DNA of 58,178 bases, the filler included, from Dirinaria sp. TL-2023a (taxonomy: Eukaryota), in NCBI GenBank assembly GCA_051941275.1. It is 6 parts of 6 records of this genome, joined end to end, with 100 filler letters (N's around TTAATTAATTAA, not from the genome) between each part and the next. Parts side by side here need not be neighbours in the genome. Positions count along the whole stretch, not along the records: positions 48,592 to 58,178 come from JAVEBF010001031.1; 5 more parts are not named here. One strand, 5' to 3'. Both the position numbers and the translations under genes were made by a program. The notes under the pieces are model-generated. The model saw nothing but the letters and a program-made list of their open reading frames with translations, was not told where the DNA came from and did not search any database. Position 1 is the first letter of the stretch, and every line of letters starts with the position of its first letter. Positions 40,546-58,178 of this stretch are shown piece by piece.

Positions 40546-40644
40546 TGACAGGAGTGGGACTCGAACCCACGCTCGTTTCCGAACCAGGAAATTGTTGTTA
40601 AGGTAACCTTAACCTGGCGCCATAACCAACTCGGCCATCCTGCC
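40546..40644 (-). tRNA. tRNA-Leu(AAG) with 17-nt intron
   Basis: Minus strand GGCAGGATGGCCGAGTTGGTTATGGCGCCAGGTTAAGG[TTACCTTAACAACAATT]TCCTGGTTCGGAAACGAGCGTGGGTTCGAGTCCCACTCCTGTCA: acceptor stem, A and B boxes, CCAGG/CCTGG anticodon stem, long variable arm. Intronic CCTTAAC pairs with GTTAAGG. Confidence 0.93.
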
Positions 40645-48591: not shown

Positions 48592-48984
48592 TCTATTATT
48601 GAAAGGTCTTCCCGGAGCTCAACAGCGAATATCGGAGGAAGCCAGAGGATAGGCTGTCCGAGATTCACGGAATATTTAAAAAAAAAAAAAGAAGAAGAAG
48701 AAGAAGAAAAGTTTTTCAGTAATTTGGAAATCGATGATCTTTGGATGATATTTACACTTTGCATACCGTACATGTATGCTATACCTATATGAACGGAGTT
48801 TGAACCGGAAGAAAAGGGACCTTAAAAAACTTATGTATGTACATCAAAAACCACGCTATATAGTACATACACAATAGACGGATATCTATATGGTTCCCCC
48901 TTGCGCAGGCATATTCAACCAACCGCAGTCCTTAGCGTCATGATAATTGTGAGCTGAGGAGTGAGGAGCGAGGGATTTCTGCTT

Positions 48985-49011
48985 GATGATGATGATGATG
49001 ATGATAATGAT
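48985..49011. repeat. (GAT)n microsatellite, imperfect
   Basis: gatgatgatgatgatgatgataatgat. Confidence 0.8.
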
Positions 49012-49671
49012 GGTGCCCGGGTCGTAGATGGGTCTTTTTCTTCTCATTTCAGGAAAGGAGGGAGCGAAGTAGGCACGCCAGGAGCTGCCTTTTTTTCTGG
49101 GCTTCGGAGTTCATCCCTACCGCTCCGCGGGCTTTTCGTGCTTTTGGCGCATGAATATGGAGATGGGTTTTGCTGAGCATTCTCATCTTTCTATTGTGAG
49201 CCTCTGAGATCCAGACTAGCTGTAGCTGTGGCGATGGTGTAAGTGGCTGAAGAAAACCCGGTATCTATCCCCCACGTCCTGCTACAGGTTTTGAGAACTC
49301 TGGCGCTTGACCGTGAGCAGATTCTCGGTCAGGGATCCTTCCGGGGTGTTGTGACCGACGACATCAAGGCCTTGCCCATATTTTGGGTGCCCGAGTCAAC
49401 GCCATTTCGTTTCGCTTTGTGTTGGTTTAACCTCTTGTGAGGTTTTCAACAAGGTTCTTTCAATGTGATCAGATCGAAAGGTAGCCTAGCAGCGAGACTT
49501 GCGATTTTCCCAATCTCCTGAAGAGCTCGATTTCGGGTCCGTCCAATGCGTGAAAAGCGTCAATTATACATCGGTCGAGGTCATACACCGATTTGCCCTC
49601 AGTCATTTCTGCAGGAAGTCTTCCTTTGGATTCGTCCTTTTGATTTCCACATCCGCTGTGCAATCATTCGC

Positions 49672-51819
49672 TTACGCAACACCCATTGCTTTACGTTCTT
49701 CTGGTGGCTCTGCATCCTCCTGAAAGCCATCCTCCATGCGGTTAACATATTCAGCCTTGTCATGTAATAGACGTAGTGCCCTGATCGTATAATCGTCCTG
49801 CTCTAAGCCAGCATCCTGCATCTGCCTTGTGGCTTCAACCACACCGTCAACATCCTGTCGCCGAGCATAACCTGCCATTATCGAATTCCATGTAACTACG
49901 TCGGGCACTATATTCCTTGAGCGCATCATTGCCAAAACTTTCTCTGCTGCTCCGTCGAAACCTTGTTTCATATAACAGTCAACCAGGATGTTCCAGGTTT
50001 GCACCGTAGGCTTTCCTCCGTTCTGTGGGTTTGTGCCCTTGAAGGCCAGTGCGGGAGTGTCGCCAAAAGGGACACTTGCAAGCATGTCCTTTACAACGAG
50101 CGTAGCATATTGTAGATAGTCGTGCTGAGAACCAAGGGCTTTGATGAAGGCGTTACCAATGTGATCTGTATTCGCAAGAGGTGCAAAAAGGGGATGCTTT
50201 GCCGCCACGTATTCACGGTACTGTTGGTACAAGGGAAGGATAGTTCTCGAAGTCGCACGCGATCGGACATAGGCCATCAGCACCATGCCAATGATCAATG
50301 AAGATGGCTGCGAGACACTGAAATCTGTATTCCCTTGATCCACGCTCGGGTACGGGAGTCCCAAATCTCGAAGAGGCTCGATATCGCAGTAGCGGCTGTA
50401 GTATGACAATACAAGCTCGAAGCAATGGGCTGGGTGGTACAGGGTGTCCGACTGATTGACAACGTAGACTGCGTGAAGAATATCGAAGACGAGGTCCAGG
50501 TCATGAGGCAGAATCCCTTCTTCCGTTGCGATGTCGATGACTCTATCTAGGGCACCTTGGTCAGGGCCTTGCTTCGCAATTATCAGTAAAACACTGAGAG
50601 TAATTCGATTAGGCTTCAGCCCTTCCAAAACTCCCATGTCATACCATCTCCAGGCTTCTTCAAAGTTACCGGCCTTAATTGCGGCCTGAATAATACATGT
50701 CCAAAGTATCTGGTTAGGTTTAATACCTAGCTCTATGAGACCCTGCCCCAGGCTCTGGTCGTAGATTTCCGATGAGGTCGTAGTCTCACTCCTAGATTCC
50801 GAAGCTGCCCGCAGAAACTGGACACAGCAGCTCTGCAATGCATAAGACGATGTATCGGTTCCCATACTAACAGCATTCCGGAGAACTTCGAAAGCTATAG
50901 GTAGCTCGCCTTTTTGCACGAATCTCTCCATGAAATGTAAAAGTGTCTTGCCCTTCAATGGAACTTTATACGTGAGCAGAGTTTGGAAAAAAGTTTTCAT
51001 CTGCTCGTGGCTGCAATGCGCTTGGATTAGATGAATGCTGCTTTGACCCATGAGCATTGGTCGCTCGCAGCGTGCAGCCATACTGATGTAGTCGCAAGCC
51101 AATTGATGGATGGCTTTGATGTGCAAAGCTGTGGGTGGATTGGCTGACTGTAGGAAGCATCGAACAAGCCTTTTAAAGTACGACCCCAGGGCTATCGGTG
51201 GTATGTCGAACACGCCATCATTAAATGCGAGGTGCAAGAGTATAAAGGCTTGTTCTGGATGTTCTCTCCAACACAGGTTCAACTGCGCATACCACGTCCG
51301 GCGACACCAGTTTCTGATCATCTGAGTGACCGTTCGCTGCAATTTATCCTCGTCCCATTTCCGATCTGCGCGATACCGATCCAAGCCTTGTGAAGTACTT
51401 CGGGATATCACCCTCTGCGCTGCCTCTTCCTGCATCTTCAAAAGCGCACGATACTTCTCCCAGCTTGTACGCCTCCAATCGATATCATCAGCATTAGTCC
51501 AATCGATGTTCTCAGTGTTATAAAAGAGCGCAGGGGCATCCTCGGGGTCATGCTTTGTGATCTGTGCGTGGCTGGCGTGGCAACCACCTGGTTGTATCTT
51601 CTCGTCTCGGTGCAAGGGACGCGAGGGTTGAGAAAGGCGTATTGATTCGCCATCTTGTAAGAATCCATTTGAGCGCCGTCCTGTGGGGGTTTGCAGGATT
51701 GATCGTTTAGTTGTTGAGCCCGCCACACATGACTTGATCAGTCTTGACTTTGACCAGGTAGATTTGGGAATATCAGCCGTGTTGAGATACGATGTTGCCC
51801 GAAGCGAGCGATTGATCAT
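49672..51819 (-). CDS. Pentatricopeptide repeat (PPR) protein, probably mitochondrial
   Basis: About 715-aa ORF with PPR motifs (GIKPNQILWTCIIQAAIKAGNFEEAWRWY; PTVQTWNILVDCYMKQG..AAEKVLAMMRSRNIVPDVVTWNSIMAGYARRQD) and an Arg/Ser-rich, acid-poor N-terminus. First ATG at 51819. Confidence 0.87.
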   Translation of the reverse strand: MINRSLRATSYLNTADIPKSTWSKSRLIKSCVAGSTTKRSILQTPTGRRSNGFLQDGESIRLSQPSRPLHRDEKIQPGGCHASHAQITKHDPEDAPALFYNTENIDWTNADDIDWRRTSWEKYRALLKMQEEAAQRVISRSTSQGLDRYRADRKWDEDKLQRTVTQMIRNWCRRTWYAQLNLCWREHPEQAFILLHLAFNDGVFDIPPIALGSYFKRLVRCFLQSANPPTALHIKAIHQLACDYISMAARCERPMLMGQSSIHLIQAHCSHEQMKTFFQTLLTYKVPLKGKTLLHFMERFVQKGELPIAFEVLRNAVSMGTDTSSYALQSCCVQFLRAASESRSETTTSSEIYDQSLGQGLIELGIKPNQILWTCIIQAAIKAGNFEEAWRWYDMGVLEGLKPNRITLSVLLIIAKQGPDQGALDRVIDIATEEGILPHDLDLVFDILHAVYVVNQSDTLYHPAHCFELVLSYYSRYCDIEPLRDLGLPYPSVDQGNTDFSVSQPSSLIIGMVLMAYVRSRATSRTILPLYQQYREYVAAKHPLFAPLANTDHIGNAFIKALGSQHDYLQYATLVVKDMLASVPFGDTPALAFKGTNPQNGGKPTVQTWNILVDCYMKQGFDGAAEKVLAMMRSRNIVPDVVTWNSIMAGYARRQDVDGVVEATRQMQDAGLEQDDYTIRALRLLHDKAEYVNRMEDGFQEDAEPPEERKAMGVA

Positions 51820-52179
51820 GAGCAAGATGTTCGCTCATGAGATTGTCTGCAGTGGCATTGGGATAGATTTCATCGATGGGTCCCCTCGCTTGTAAGGTAG
51901 TAATGAACTTTACAGTAGGTAGAGACTGTACATACTGTAGGTACACCGGGACACTAAGATAATACACATGGGTCATCTAAAGTACTCGTACCTCACCTTA
52001 ACTGGACATTTTGCCGAGGCACGAGCAACCACGCCAAGCCCCGCCTGGATCTCACAATCATCAATACTCAATACTCCAGTACTCCACGAGCCAAAATTTT
52101 TCACGAATTCGTCTCTTTGCCGTTCTTCCTGACCAGCTGCGATCATCTGGTGTGCACTTTCACGCCTACCCGATCGGTC

Positions 52180-52791
52180 ATGGCCTCTACCCATACTTCT
52201 CTCGATGCAGCAGCAACAGAACGCAAAGCCCGGCTTGCAAAGCTCAAATCACTCAAGCGCAAACAGCCAGACAGTCACAATGAAACCGACGAGACACCCG
52301 TGGTCGAAGGATTTTCCGCTGCGACTGCAGACATTCCCGGCGAAGCACCGTCAGTTGCCACTACTTACCTGTCCGGCCGCAACTATGACCTAGCCACCCA
52401 CGGCCCCAAACTTGGCTTTGAGCAAGCTCCGACAGAGAACCAAGAAACCTTGGAAGATCGTGCAGCCCAGATCGCGGAAGAAACAGCTCAGAGAGCGGAG
52501 CAGGAAGAAAAAGAGGATAAGCCGATTGATTTGTTCAAACTACAGCCGAAGAAACCTAATTGGGACTTGAAGCGAGACCTGGGTAGGAAGATGGAAATAT
52601 TGGATGCGAGGACGGATAACGCGATCGCGCGACTCGTCAGAGAAAGAATTGAAGGCGTGAGAAAGAAGACCGGCATGGCAGATGACGCTGTTGGCATGAA
52701 GGGAGAAGAGCTGGTCGAGGGCATGCACGTCAGGGAACGAGAAGCGGAAGCGGATGAACTAAGGGAAAAATCCGAGGAAGACATGCTGTAA
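52180..52791 (+). CDS. CWF18: Pre-mRNA splicing factor Cwf18 (CCDC12 family)
   Basis: ERKARLAKLKSLKRK, LSGRNYD..GPKLGFE and IDLFKLQPKKPNWDLKRDL..LDARTDNAIARLVRER. ATG at 52180. Confidence 0.9.
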   Translation: MASTHTSLDAAATERKARLAKLKSLKRKQPDSHNETDETPVVEGFSAATADIPGEAPSVATTYLSGRNYDLATHGPKLGFEQAPTENQETLEDRAAQIAEETAQRAEQEEKEDKPIDLFKLQPKKPNWDLKRDLGRKMEILDARTDNAIARLVRERIEGVRKKTGMADDAVGMKGEELVEGMHVREREAEADELREKSEEDML

Positions 52792-52968
52792 GGGCCGTAC
52801 GCACAGGGGGTCTCGTAGGACACGCCCTTCCACTTCACGGGCACAGTGTTCGGGCATGATATCACGCGGGCACGCATCAGTAGTTGTGGGTAAAATAAAG
52901 AACCGCTGAAATCTACCTCTTTTGGCTCCTTGCTAACCCTTAGCAGACGCAGGCGGCCTTGATAGTGG

Positions 52969-54196
52969 TCATCGAACTCCCATATTCATAGCTTGTGTCA
53001 AAGCGAGCCGCTTGCTAAAGGGACTTAGGCTTCTATCCTTGCGAGTTGGAGGAGACCGCCGCGATGAGTGGCTTGTCCCTTTGCCACGGCTATCGCTCGC
53101 CGCGGTCCAGTGGCTCTTGGTATCATCATACTCCGCGGCCGGTCCAGCTTCCCTTGACTGGTGTCGGGCTTTCCACTGAGAAGCTCTTCCAATCCCTAAT
53201 CCTCGATGTTGAGGGCTTGCAGGTGTCATTGACTGCCGATTCCTTGCGATCTGGCTTCTGTCCCTGCTCCTGGTTTGGCTCCTTCGTCTATGTCGCATCC
53301 CCGGTATACTTCGATCCCTACCACGTCGATCTGGGCTGATCGAAGAGCGCCGACGCCTTGTATTACGGTCTCCTTCTCGCGAGGGACGTCTCCGTCGCCA
53401 GTCAGTTGAGGAATTTGACGAGTATGATCTTGATGATGACTGAGAACTCCGCCGGCGCTTGAGGTTTGCTCGATGGGTGAAATCTGTCTCAAAATTCTTC
53501 ACAGGCTGTGGCAATTCCTGTCGCTCGATACCCTTGACTTGATCTTGAGACGGGTAGCCGCGCCTCCTCCCCAGCGAGGATGATGAAGTATATGACTTGG
53601 CGGAACTACTTGAGCTACTTCTTCTGGGGTAAGCCTTGGAGTCTCGTAGTCCGTTGTGAGAATGACGGTCCCGCATGGTAGTTGCAGGAAGAGAACGTCG
53701 AGGTGAAGGCGAACGCGAAAGGTTCGTGGAGATTGTGGATACCGATGTTGATGAGGACGTCGACACCGATCTCGAGCGCTTTTTGCCCCTGCCTGAAGAG
53801 TCATCCTCGTCCGCTTTGCGTTGACGACCCCTCTCCGCCTCCTTTTTGGCAAGCTCTTCGTCCGCGATCCCTTTCCTACAATTGGAATTCTAGTCAGTGG
53901 ATCATTCTGCAATCGACGGATGTCTACATACTTGCGGAGTAGCTCATTCGGCACATCCGTTGTCAGCTTCGGGACAAGCTTCGGGTTAGTCAGTTGCTGA
54001 GTCCGTGAAGGCCGAGAGACATAGGGTCTGTCCTGTGTGGTGGATTTGCATTCGTAGCTATAATGCCGTATGTGGCATCAGATAGGGATGTTGCCATAGT
54101 CATGATCCACTTATCTCGTTTCAAACATTTCTGGCATTGTGTCTGCGGACTGGCCTTGGAGCGCCCGCTGGCCGCAAGCCCAAATGGCCGATTCAT
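52969..54196 (-). CDS. Zinc-knuckle (zf-CCHC_6 / ZCCHC10-like) RS-rich protein; exons 54196-54115, 54067-53932, 53875-52969
   Basis: Spliced product MNRPFG..QCQKCLKRGHYSYECKSTTQDRPYVSRPSRTQQLTNPKL..ELLRKKGIADEEL.., then an RS-rich tail ending RSLSPFSKRLALTQAMN. Intron 2 is canonical (GTATGT..CTGAC..TAG); intron 1 appears to be AT-AC. Confidence 0.85.
54068..54114 (-). other. Putative 47-nt non-canonical AT-AC intron
   Basis: AAACGAG|ATAAGTggatcatgactatggcaacatccctatCTGATgccacaTAC|GGCATTATAGCTACGAATGC. Removal gives CQKCLKRGHYSYEC. Confidence 0.75.
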
Positions 54197-55028
54197 GAGC
54201 AGCTCGTCAGAAACGAAAGATTCTTTGGAGACGCGAAAACCTCCAAGTACCGCAGCCTGTGTATTGGCGGACGTGATACGGAGAAAGTGCGAGAGCAGGC
54301 TGCCAATGCGTTCCTCATCGAGACCTGAAACTAATGTATGTAGTCCCCGTTCACCTGCGCATTAAACATAACTGTACCTTAATTATTTGCCGGTCTCCCG
54401 GTCCTTGGTATGAACACTTGTAGAATAATACTTAATGAACCTCAACATTCGCGGCTTCCAAATGATCTGCGGCACTAGAATTTTAGCGGCATCCCCACAT
54501 CTTTGCCCGGAGTGACTACTACTGGTACCAGGCTGAGATTATTACCTTGGTATTATTATCATTATTACTCGCCGTCTTACTAACCCTCGTCAACATAACA
54601 GCAAACTTTGGTTCCACGGGCTGAGTGAGGCGACAAAACACCCTTTTCTGTCTTCATTGAGTGTGTTGGCATTCATGGACTGATTCACCCCGATCGCAAT
54701 TCCCTCACCACCTTTACTTACGTCGCCCACAATTCAAGAGGCTTCCAACCTCGTCTTTCTCAAGGCTATCGGGGCTCGGAGTAACAACGCCAGAAGAGAG
54801 CAGTGACAGTGACAGTGACAGCTCGTCTCGTCTACATGGCGGACGGTCATGATGCCAAGGGATTCTTTTCCATTACCACCAGAAGTGTTTGAGATGTCTT
54901 CTCCTTGAGCTACTATTGCATTCTTCTTACCCAACTTTTCTACACTCCTTTGGCACTGAAGTCCTCGATCTTTCAATCCCTACAACCGCCTCACCAGGCT
55001 CTGAAGGTCTAATATTCACTGATCTGTC

Positions 55029-57606
55029 ATGACGGCCAAGTCGCCTGCGTCTGGCGGCTCCAAGCCATCATTCGCAACTGTAAGCGTTCTTGACTCCGGA
55101 TTCGACACCGCCGGACTCTATTTCAGCTGACCTAAACTAGATTGCTGCGATGGCTCCTCCTTCGCAATCAGGGCGGGGTTCCAAATCGAGAGGCGTTACC
55201 GAAAGGTCGCCCAATCTTCCAGACCGCCCTTCACCTACCCGCGAAAAAAACCTTAATGATGAAACCACGTCAGCCTTGCATGCCCATCGCGATCTACAAA
55301 GTTCTATGAAACGGCTTGCCATCAGCGAGAAAGTGGTCATCCGTTCTCCGGCGGATGCGGATGGTCCAGGCCGTGCTAGCCTTAGGTTCGATGACGAACA
55401 GACCCATATCTCTTGTTCATCAACGAAGCAGACTAGCTCAGACAGTAGGAGCGCCACATCGGGCGCTACCTGTGCTCTCGACGAAAAGGAGTCTCTGAGA
55501 CCTGACGACAGTGCTAGCACAAGAGCTGTCGAGGAAGAGGATTCCTGTTCTGGAGTCGCATCAGCAGCGCCAAGCTCACGGGTTGGCTCAGAAGCTGGAG
55601 GTAGAGCCTTTCGAGATCAGTTCAACGAGATATCGGAGAGAATAGGTCCCAGCTTGCACCGTTTACAATCCATAAATCGACGGGGCATCCCAGGTATCGT
55701 CGAGGAGGGCTCGCAGCCAACGAACGCACCAAATGACCCCACAGTACCTGCACCCATCAACGGACCTGAAGGATTAGCTGCGAATGGCAGGTCGTTCATT
55801 ATAGAATACAAAGGTCCAGACGAGAAATTGTTTGAAGCCCTCGAGTCTCCTAAAGACCGCTTATTCCTTATTCGGCTTGAGCAAGAAGTAATCTCCTTCA
55901 TCAAAAATTCCAACGATCCAATTTTGGATCTCCCACCATGCAACTCGTTTTGCAGACTTCTTGCGCACAAGCTGGCCGATTACTACGCTCTAACTCATTA
56001 TGTGGATAACGCTGTCAGTTCTGTGCGCTTGTATCGGACGCCCTACTGTCGAATCCCAACGCCTTTGAGCGCTTTGGCGAAACAGTCGGTTCCAAAAGAT
56101 TCCATGCCAACCTCGCAGCCCAGCATGAAGATCATGCGGCGCGAAGGCGCTGGTAAAGATGGAGTAAATGCAGGATCGGGGGCCAACACCACTACGAGTT
56201 CAATGGCTGCTTCCAAGGCTAATTCTGAGATTGGGGACGACAGTCAACGAGGTACAGGGCTTGCATCGCCGACCGATTCTGTCACTGCAAAGGAGAGAGC
56301 TACCATGACCCGTGAAGAACGAGAAGCGAAATACAAAGAAACAAGGGAACGGATATTCAAAGGTTTTGAGGATGCCGAGAACGCCGAAGCAAACCAATCC
56401 AGCGAGCTTGTTAACGAAATGTCTCGTACGAGTTCAAGCGCTGGGAAGAAAAAATCGAAGAAGTCCAAACACCATGACGATGGCTTCGAGGCCCGTTCTA
56501 AGTTCAACGCTTACTATCCAGCAATGCAATATCCTCCTTCGCAGTACCCTGCCTCGCAGTATCCTCCCTCCCAGTACCCTCCTTCGCAGTATCCTATGTC
56601 AGATTACAAGCAGACCGCAGGTGCAATGGTGTATTTCAACCCATACTCCGCGGAGCAGGATGCAATGATGAATCAATCCGGCATGCTCAACACGCCAATC
56701 TTCTCGAACCCTTATTCGCATGGATATCCCCCAGTGCCAAACGGACCAATGTATCAAATGGGAATGCAAACCCCCATGATGCCCGGGTCAGATATGGCTA
56801 GTCAAAGCAATGGGCTCTGTTCCTACGGCGGTTACAGTCAACAATTTCCACAGGCATATGACCAACAGATGATGCAACAGCCAGTAATGGGCCAGCAGTC
56901 TCCAGTGATGTCGTCTCCCGCACTAAGTAACAACCCTCAACTCTCACGGCCATCATCGCAAATGTCCGACCAGTCTTATGTTCAGAACAGTTACTCGTAC
57001 GGTTACCAGCAACCTCCACAGCCGCAGCCGAGCTACTCACCGCACCTGCACCACCGGACCCCTGCGCGCAGCGTACCTTCAGTGCCGTATCAGTATGGGC
57101 AATTACCATATGAGCCCAATCATCCACCAGGGAAAGCACAGCACCCTCTGCCCGGAAGCTACAGTCGACAAGCATTTAATCCGCAGACTCGGGCCTTCGT
57201 CCCAAGTTCGGGCGGCAATGCTTCGCAGAGCCCGTCCTTCAGTGCACCGACCAGTACGCCGATACGTAGTCCACTGGCAAATTTGTCAAACGGCTCCGCC
57301 AATTCTCCTCACAGCAAACAGACAGGCAATCCTCACAACAGCTCCAAGAACACGTCTTCCACTCCGGCCCACTCCCACCGGTCGACGTCAAACCACAGCA
57401 GTCCCCAGCCAAGCACGCTTGCAAAGTGGGGGACACCGGCAAATCTGCCTCCCAAGCCGCCGCCACCGGAAACGCCGGCTGCGCCAGACTCGCTGCCCAC
57501 CAACCCTACGACCATGCACGGGCCTATTCCGATGCAGCCGATGATGCACGGGCAACCCATGCCAAGCTATCAGAATGGAATCTACAGTATGCCGGGAGGG
57601 AAATAA
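55029..57606 (+). CDS. R3H- and SUZ-domain RNA-binding protein (encore/ARPP21-like); exons 55029-55079, 55141-57606
   Basis: R3H region (PKDRLFLIRLEQEV..LPPCNSFCRLLAHKLADYY), SUZ (MKIMRR..TREEREAKYKETRERIF), Q/P/Y-rich tail with FNPQTRAFVPS. Intron GTAAGC..GCTGAC..TAG (55080-55140) adds MTAKSPASGGSKPSFAT in frame. Confidence 0.88.
56527..56601 (+). repeat. Coding 15-bp tandem repeat (QYPPS-like x5) in the R3H/SUZ gene
   Basis: Encodes QYPPS QYPAS QYPPS QYPPS QYPMS. Confidence 0.85.
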
Positions 57607-58178
57607 ATACAATGGTCAGCACGAGACCGGGGCATTTCTTTCTCTGGCGCATACATGCTTCTCTGCTGTGAAATGAAAGAAAAAAGCCAGATAAGTATAG
57701 GTCCGCCTTGGGAGGAGGGGGGGGGGTTTGTTTTTAAAGCATCCAGACACGGCGTTGACCAGTCGGTAACTTTTTCATGATGAAGCCTCATGACGATAAA
57801 GCATTCTGGGTGGTTGGTGGGTGGTGGCGGTGGTGTCTGTTTTTTCCTCCTTATATTTGCATGCACACACGTCATAGCTTGCGAAAGCGAAAAAAAGGAG
57901 GGAGAAAGCAGTTTTCTGGGGTGAAACGCCCGGGAACTCGAGGCCGCATCTTTTTTCGTGCGGCTCTTCCCTTTTTTTGTAGACAGATATGAATAGAAGA
58001 AGCTTTTTCTCCAATTTCTTCCATAATGTAAGGACCGCATACATACAGTAAGGTAGTCAAGATATCTAACCCGCGTGGTCTTTTTGTCTATACTTGTAGA
58101 GGTAGTCTTCATACTCCCCGCCACCGTGAAATGCACCCCAATAAATAAACATCTGTACTTATGTACAAACGCCCACCC

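Follow-up and report, generated by a model that had tools for sequence, protein, structure and literature searches.

A probable major-spliceosome AT-AC intron that divides the zinc knuckle of a fungal PF13917 gene

How does an intron that begins with AT and ends with AC come to interrupt a gene of a fungus that is expected to lack the minor spliceosome? The locus that raises this question lies in a 58,178-nucleotide (nt) stretch of DNA from Dirinaria sp. TL-2023a (GenBank assembly GCA_051941275.1), here called the window, which consists of six genomic parts joined end to end by filler letters; positions 48,592-58,178 come from record JAVEBF010001031.1. On the minus strand of that part, a gene for a CCHC zinc-knuckle protein with an arginine/serine-rich (RS-rich) tail is divided by two introns, the first of which (intron 1) splits the knuckle itself. 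An earlier note, drawn from the sequence alone, had read intron 1 as a rare U2-type AT-AC intron. Our analysis leads to the same view: intron 1 is very probably a genuine spliceosomal AT-AC intron of "type II", removed by the major spliceosome, in a PF13917 gene of a lichen-forming ascomycete.

Gene structure and RNA across intron 1

The gene has three exons (Table 1). Exon 1 encodes the CxxC half of the CCHC knuckle and its 3' end reads ...TGT TTG AAA CGA G, and exon 2 begins at 54067 with GG CAT TAT AGC TAC GAA TGC. The sequence agrees throughout with the earlier note's minus-strand reading of the intron between them, including its ATAAGT, CTGAT and TAC signals and the flanking exons. When the three exons were joined by script, they gave a single open frame of 375 codons with a full C-x2-C-x4-H-x4-C knuckle, which bears out the claim that excision of 47 nt yields a complete knuckle and the correct frame. 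The unspliced frame terminates at 53992-53990, at the stop that the note had placed at 53990.

Other ways of removing the interruption were considered and rejected. A GT-AG intron at 54110-54058 keeps the frame but deletes Gly-His-Tyr-Ser; its translation (...KRDNYEC) lacks the His ligand, as the note had said it would, and it has no RNA support. Moving the AT-AC junction by one base in either direction produces a mismatch with the sequence, and the RNA cut described below is unambiguous (both = 0). A second GT-AG option, at 54126-54058, is implied by P0006, the deposited 347-amino-acid model of the window gene, which is named for a species of the lichen-forming genus Dirinaria (Lecanoromycetes) and matches the window protein at 345 of its 347 residues. 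This option would start translation at an out-of-frame ATG (54137), and the knuckle is lost. The N-terminus of P0006 (MPEIYECK) is explicable only by that ATG followed by a splice from 54127 to 54057, and P0006 is therefore a forced 69-nt GT-AG model, an annotation error that destroys the zinc knuckle.

On sequence grounds, the window gene encodes a zinc-knuckle protein of the PF13917 (ZCCHC10-like) family with 375 amino acids and an RS-rich tail, the Pfam score being taken from a relative's protein, P0004. P0004 comes from public run assemblies, is also 375 amino acids long, and aligns with the spliced window protein without a gap (309/375 identical). Its match to PF13917 (zf-CCHC_3) covers residues 16-56 with a score of 68.6 bits, above the gathering cut-off of 27 (E 4e-19). 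A protein search with exon 2 returned 355 homologues at E <= 0.001, and PF13917 was precomputed for all 120 of those listed.

A search of sequencing runs returned four RNA runs, all from a single lichen metatranscriptome sample, and a DNA-like run from another study. We aligned contigs of X1, X3 and X4 (RNA, all from the single sample) and of X5 (DNA-like) to positions 52900-54500. RNA contigs of X1 (2074 nt) and X3 (282 nt) connect 54067 straight to 54115 and skip exactly 47 nt, the ends of which are GT..AT on the plus strand and thus AT..AC on the gene strand. The joint has 137 matching letters on its shorter side, "both" equal to 0 and no alternative cut, and contig depth is 12.7 in X1 and 11.4 in X3. 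The first X1 record spans 54115-54415, and RNA contigs also span exon 2 (53931-54067). The junction CGAG^GGCAT across the knuckle, which the earlier note had predicted, is the one found in these X1 and X3 contigs. Intron 2 is removed in the same X1 contig (joint 53874->53931; CT..AC on the plus strand, GT..AG on the gene strand), and therefore this contig derives from spliced RNA rather than from DNA in the library. The organism behind the RNA contigs is approximately 97% identical to the window over the aligned parts. A contig of the DNA-like run X5, from a relative that is approximately 93% identical, crosses intron 1 unbroken, showing that the intron is present as DNA in that organism. No contig that retains intron 1 was found among the RNA contigs examined, although contigs cannot measure splicing efficiency.

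Two other features of these contigs were seen in the same gene. Around intron 2 (53846-53960), a 115-nt X3 contig with a depth of 11.1 retains the GT-AG intron, and a spliced contig with a depth of 7 lies beside it; because contigs cannot measure efficiency, we withhold any firm inference on splicing efficiency from retained and spliced contigs. Within exon 3, at 53625-53687 on the minus strand, 61 nt are missing from X1 and X3 and 5 different letters stand in their place, so that each contig is 56 nt shorter overall. This figure is not a multiple of 3, and the ends of the gap are not GT-AG. The stretch is kept in an X4 RNA contig that ends exactly at 53626, X5 reads through it, and P0004 is ungapped there. 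Possible causes of the gap are a deletion in that strain, unusual splicing and misassembly of a repetitive, AGA-rich stretch.

We considered whether the AT and AC ends might be assembly or sequencing errors in a decaying pseudogene whose true intron is GT-AG. P0006 uses a GT-AG intron, as judged from its N-terminus, and the source is apparently a metagenome-derived genome, both of which would fit such an error. However, the RNA joint allows no alternative placement (both = 0), each of the two possible GT-AG introns destroys the knuckle while the spliced frame stays open for 375 codons, and AT...A(C/A) ends are common to 38 distinct orthologous sequences from many samples. We give this explanation almost no credence.

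Table 1. Positions of the zinc-knuckle gene, its splice signals and other features within the window
Feature	Position	Strand	Remarks
Exon 1, coding part	54115..54196	minus	ATG at 54196; 27 codons and the first base (G) of a Gly codon
AT-AC intron (intron 1)	54068..54114	minus	47 nt, phase 1; U2-type by its signals
5' splice site ATAAGT	54109..54114	minus	follows exon ...CGAG; equals U2 consensus GTAAGT with A at +1
Putative branch site CTGAT	54077..54081	minus	predicted branch A at 54078, 10 nt from the last intron base
3' splice site TAC	54068..54070	minus	followed by exon 2 (GG CAT...)
Exon 2	53932..54067	minus	remainder of the knuckle (GHYSYEC) and a conserved RPYVSRPSRTQQL...LLRK block
Intron 2	53876..53931	minus	ordinary GT-AG intron, 56 nt (GTATGT...CTGAC...TAG); within-gene control
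Exon 3	52969..53875	minus	RS-rich tail, conserved C-terminal RSLSPFSKRLALTQAMN motif, stop codon
cwf18 pre-mRNA splicing factor gene	52180..52791	plus	open reading frame; PF08315, E 4e-44; convergent neighbour
tRNA gene	40546-40644	minus	Rfam match; 99 nt against a 71-position model

Intron ends in orthologous DNA and protein models

Metagenome contigs were scanned with an alignment of exon 2 and 32 short homologues. The pattern was matched by 332 stretches, of which 264 were confirmed; the best 80 were examined, and the two halves of the knuckle were located by script. At the codon position of intron 1, 50 of these 80 loci carry AT..AC ends and six carry AT..AA ends (L044, L048, L068 and L071-L073). 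A plain GGN codon marks 22 loci as intronless, and the remaining two (L022 and L079) are incomplete upstream but have ..TAC before exon 2. GT..AG ends were found at this position in none of the 80. The proposal that orthologous genes would keep AT..AC ends was thus upheld, with conservation in 50 loci.

Including the window, there are 38 distinct intron 1 sequences (35 AT-AC and 3 AT-AA), with lengths from 46 to 61 nt. At 75% identity or more they form 31 clusters, 28 of them AT-AC and three AT-AA. The window intron joins no cluster, and its interior has therefore diverged fully while the ends have been kept. Intron 2 in the same loci, for the cases that the script found and at the 5' end only, begins with GT in 52 of 54 and with GC in two. 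We also recounted by hand, uncorrected for relatedness, the base at exon position -2, a third codon position: it is A in 37 of the 38 intron-bearing sequences versus 7 of 15 distinct intronless ones. This is the bias expected from selection for an AG exon end at the 5' splice site.

The six AT..AA loci fall in three unrelated clusters. In these loci the next base is G, which places an AG one base downstream and out of frame, and one protein model (P0095) reads through an AT..AA intron as ...PLSH.... Reading these introns as AT..AG was rejected because the downstream AG breaks the frame. A TA..AG reading would replace Gly with Asp and would have a 5' site that is unlike any consensus (hand reading), so AT-AA was kept.

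In most orthologues that lack the AT-AC intron, the frame continues through the position of intron 2 as well; the loci concerned are L014, L036, L046, L050, L058-L059, L062-L063, L065, L069, L074-L078 and L080, mostly nearest to Pleosporales. Several intronless loci lie on contigs of 20-230 kb, indicating a true loss in DNA rather than a copy made from RNA.

Protein databases carry a trace of the same ends. Among the 120 homologue models listed, 59 have an intact knuckle, 30 read through intron 1, 30 are without the CxxC half, and one, the window's own P0006, has lost the His. Thus 61 of the 120 are wrong at intron 1, and half of the models fail here because gene finders insist on GT-AG. This is what the note had expected of gene finders limited to GT-AG. 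If AT-AC were permitted at this site, the zinc knuckle would be repaired in many genomes.

The read-through models also report on the intron ends. A phase-1 insert starts with G plus the first two intron bases and ends with the last intron base plus GG, and a GT..AG intron would accordingly be read as Gly...Gly. The insert begins with Asp in all 30 read-through models, which corresponds to G/AT or G/AC and not to G/GT. It ends with Arg (C or A before GG) in 28, with Ser in one, which matches AT..AA, and with Gly in one. Arg also stands immediately before His in 29 of the 30 models that lack the CxxC half. A second protein search, with a Trichoderma query, added 106 proteins, mostly from Sordariomycetes. 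Eighty-six of these are intact, eight read through with Asp at the start and Arg at the end of the insert (D..R), and two were missed by the pattern. Among the N-truncated models, nine have Arg before His and one has Ser.

Loci were placed among fungi by summed tblastn scores against 49 named proteins together with taxonomy look-ups. Intron-bearing loci are nearest to Cornicularia (Lecanoromycetes), to Hyaloscypha and Stipitochalara (Leotiomycetes) and, for L060 and L061, to Thermoascus aurantiacus (Eurotiomycetes; score 625). Most intronless loci are nearest to Pyrenochaeta and Dothidotthia (Pleosporales). Models that show the D..R signature bear the names of Trichoderma, Colletotrichum and Tolypocladium (Sordariomycetes), of Lasiodiplodia and Lepidopterella (Dothideomycetes) and of Glutinoglossum (Geoglossomycetes). 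Taken together, these placements suggest that intron 1 is older than the split of the main "leotiomyceta" classes.

Splice signals, mechanism and competing explanations

We examined the splice signals of all 38 distinct introns. At the 5' site, position 1 is A and position 2 is T in all 38, position 3 is A in 33 and G in five, position 5 is G in all 38 and position 6 is T in 34; the pattern ATRNG[TA] describes 38 of 38. CTRAY is present in 34, and its A lies 10-12 nt from the last base in every one of them. The other four introns carry CTGAG (twice), CCAAC and CTTAC at the branch position. The U12 motifs ATATCC and TCCTTRAY were each found in 0 of the 38. In the window intron, 54114-54113 are AT and 54069-54068 are AC, and the RNA excision falls exactly at these ends. 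By the motif criterion of Sheth et al., AG/ATAAGT matches the U2 consensus except at +1, and neither the U12-type 5' site ATATCCTT nor a TCCTTAAC branch 10-15 nt from the 3' end is found. The signals thus have the character that the earlier note had given them: a U2-like donor, acceptor and branch (ATAAGT and CTGAT) and no U12 donor.

Minor introns are biased away from phase 0. The phase 1 of intron 1 fits this bias, one subtype of U12 introns typically has AT-AC ends, and 15 of the 38 distinct 5' sites start with ATAT, like the U12 consensus. These features would suit a U12-type intron removed by the minor spliceosome. In contrast, ATATCC and TCCTTRAY are missing from all 38 introns, and positions +5 and +6 are G and T, as in U2 sites. 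In addition, the surveys that we cite report, in the passages seen, that Ascomycota, Basidiomycota and "Pezizomycotina" have neither U12 splicing nor its small nuclear RNAs (snRNAs) (PMC2846911), and that Ascomycota have no convincing minor intron and Dikarya show a complete absence (PMC10639083). These papers agree with the earlier statement that Pezizomycotina have no known minor spliceosome. An Rfam scan of the 58-kb window matched only a tRNA, which says little about this alternative. A U12-type intron is very improbable here, and from the motifs and the published surveys we infer that intron 1 depends on U2.

The non-GT-AG ends and the short length could also point to a removal of the 47 nt outside the spliceosome, for example by an endonuclease and a ligase as for HAC1-type introns. 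However, the conserved U2-like 5' site, CTRAY at 10-12 nt and the AG exon end are spliceosomal hallmarks. The interior is not conserved, so that shared stem-loops are not evident, as judged from sequence divergence. We find removal of this kind scarcely credible.

Removal by the major spliceosome would proceed as follows. AG/AUAAGU would be recognised as a normal GUAAGU site despite the A at +1, and U2 would pair with CUGAU, the branch site 10 nt before the intron end. In the second step, A(+1)-C(-1) would take the place of the usual non-Watson-Crick contact of G(+1) with G(-1). According to published passages, the second step involves such a G-G pair between the two terminal bases of the intron, for which A-C can substitute (PMC11585973), in line with the note's claim that A...C termini can stand in for G...G. 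An engineered AT-AC intron has been spliced in yeast, and metazoan U2-type AT-AC introns show a strong /ATAAGT consensus, according to the passages of another paper (PMC5029451). A change at a single end should spoil the pair, and the AT-AC state should thus act as a trap: reaching GT-AG would need both ends changed together, and lineages would keep AT-A(C/A) or lose the intron. Such a trap would be the simplest reason for the persistence of the intron, and no function is needed to account for "keep or lose, never convert". As the three AT-AA clusters show, the 3' base has some freedom.

It has also been proposed, in the note, that the intron acts as a splicing-fidelity sensor or autoregulatory switch. 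In that case the ends would be under selection because a slow or factor-dependent AT-AC intron limits or tunes the dose of an RS-domain protein. The invariance of AT over 31 clusters, the lack of GT-AG conversions, the RS-rich tail of the host protein and the cwf18 neighbour are consistent with a function. However, the same pattern is expected without one, since single end changes should impair the second step (a principle stated in the passages of PMC11585973). Moreover, the intron is absent in 22 of 80 loci. The outcomes of retention are unpatterned: lengths modulo 3 are distributed 11/15/12, and a stop-free read-through occurs in only 4 of 38 introns. The idea that retention is a designed switch was rejected for lack of any pattern in length modulo 3 or in stops over the 38 introns. 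Intron 1 was seen only in spliced form, and it is intron 2 that has an unspliced contig, although contigs cannot measure efficiency. We regard selection on the ends as quite unlikely. The label "splicing-associated gene", whose sole basis is the RS-rich tail and the cwf18 neighbour, is not supported.

A further possibility concerns the origin of intron 1, which might be a leftover from the minor spliceosome that was lost. In this scenario the ZCCHC10-like gene once had a U12-type AT-AC intron, and the major spliceosome took over its removal when U11/U12 disappeared from Dikarya; ATATCC would have changed to ATATGT or ATAAGT while the A...C ends were kept, and this captured state would then have been frozen across Pezizomycotina. 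A literature search for ZCCHC10 as a known U12-intron gene gave nothing relevant. This origin is unlikely, but if it were true, the intron would be a datable molecular fossil of the hand-over from U12 to U2.

Several points weigh against removal of a widely conserved AT-AC intron by the major spliceosome. The RNA support consists of assembled contigs rather than raw reads and comes from one sample (X1 = X3 = X4), and the contigs belong to an approximately 97%-identical relative, not to the strain of the window. The DNA-like X5 contig says nothing about the intron ends. The preference for U2 over U12 is deduced from motifs and published surveys. Only the best 80 of 264 loci were covered, and GT-AG versions are possible elsewhere or behind the 59 "intact" models. 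One read-through model, P0097, ends in ...SLGHYSYEC and implies an AT..AG version in one metagenome organism; the sequence of P0097 is close to that of P0095, which has AT..AA. Some of the short intronless contigs may be metatranscriptome complementary DNA rather than instances of intron loss. Finally, the taxon labels of the loci are guesses from the nearest named protein and not phylogenies.

If intron 1 is removed by the major spliceosome, this gene would amount to a long experiment of nature on the rule that links the first and last intron bases, run in organisms for which only the major spliceosome is reported. Over 31 clusters, A(+1) goes with C(-1), three times with A(-1) and never with G in the DNA examined, and the AT-AA cases and the one implied AT-AG case point to the departures that nature tolerates. 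The rule "keep AT-AC or lose, never convert" would provide a clean example of a mutational trap, and intron 1 is a candidate with which to test whether any former minor introns are still present in Dikarya.

The surroundings of the gene were also examined. The gene adjoins CWF18, as the note had said, with a PF08315 match (E 4e-44). The two genes are convergent, with stop codons approximately 180 nt apart. The relative's RNA contig departs from the window 22 nt beyond the zinc-knuckle stop, and the 3' flank differs there. Elsewhere in the window, the tRNA gene at 40546-40644 probably contains an intron.

Relation to known AT-AC introns

Introns of this kind are rare in the genomes that have been surveyed. 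In the passages seen of Sheth et al. 2006, U2-type AT-AC introns number 15 in human, 6 in mouse, 3 in fly, and 0 in both worm and Arabidopsis, and their borders are conserved from human to pufferfish (PMC1557818). The metazoan type II introns of SCN4A and SCN5A likewise combine AT-AC ends with an otherwise U2-type 5' site and are extremely rare (PMC1557818). The window intron differs in its length of 47 nt, in its fungal CTRAY 10 nt from the end and in a host that is expected to be without the minor spliceosome. Moreover, U2 dependence was shown experimentally for SCN4A/5A (PMC1557818, as far as seen), whereas for the window intron it is deduced from sequence. U12-type AT-AC introns have the same terminal dinucleotides and likewise pair an A at the start with a C at the end, but their defining ATATCCTT 5' site and TCCTTAAC branch occur in 0 of the 38 introns here.

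Two other AT-AC reports concern members of Dikarya that likewise lack the minor spliceosome: a nested RPL30 event in S. cerevisiae (PMC5029451) and 13 introns in Ganoderma lingzhi (PMC11590231). In the Ganoderma passages, the gene model was also broken until AT-AC was allowed. The RPL30 event is described as a side product of 1-2% with a 5' site unlike /ATAAGT (PMC5029451); unlike it, the window intron provides the only productive junction in its gene, at a 5' site close to the consensus. The passages on these cases in PMC5029451 and PMC11590231 do not describe conservation across classes. A few AT-AC junctions are counted in fungal RNA-sequencing studies.

The closest precedent is a row in a supplementary table of Zhao et al. 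2013, which lists a 52-nt AT-AC intron in Fusarium graminearum FGSG_10073 together with confirmation primers (PMC3577648). Like the window intron, it has AT-AC ends and lies near the 5' end of its gene; the earlier model of the F. graminearum gene was revised. Among 229 proteins, P0134, the F. graminearum orthologue, is alone in containing HGGRHQ, the peptide that the reverse primer encodes. From this one 6-residue match and the features of the gene, the FGSG_10073 intron is probably the orthologue of the window intron. The forward primer has no coding-frame match in P0134 and presumably lies in an untranslated region. The coordinates in the table are not exactly consistent with the 304-amino-acid model, which we attribute to a different 3' end of the old model. 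The table row, as seen in PMC3577648, gives no gene family, U2/U12 assignment or conservation. In our literature search, which covered papers available without subscription, no passage seen names the gene family, assigns a type or notes conservation. Set beside these systems, the window intron joins the known class of U2-type AT-AC introns, within which its conservation is unusually deep and its footprint on gene annotation is large.

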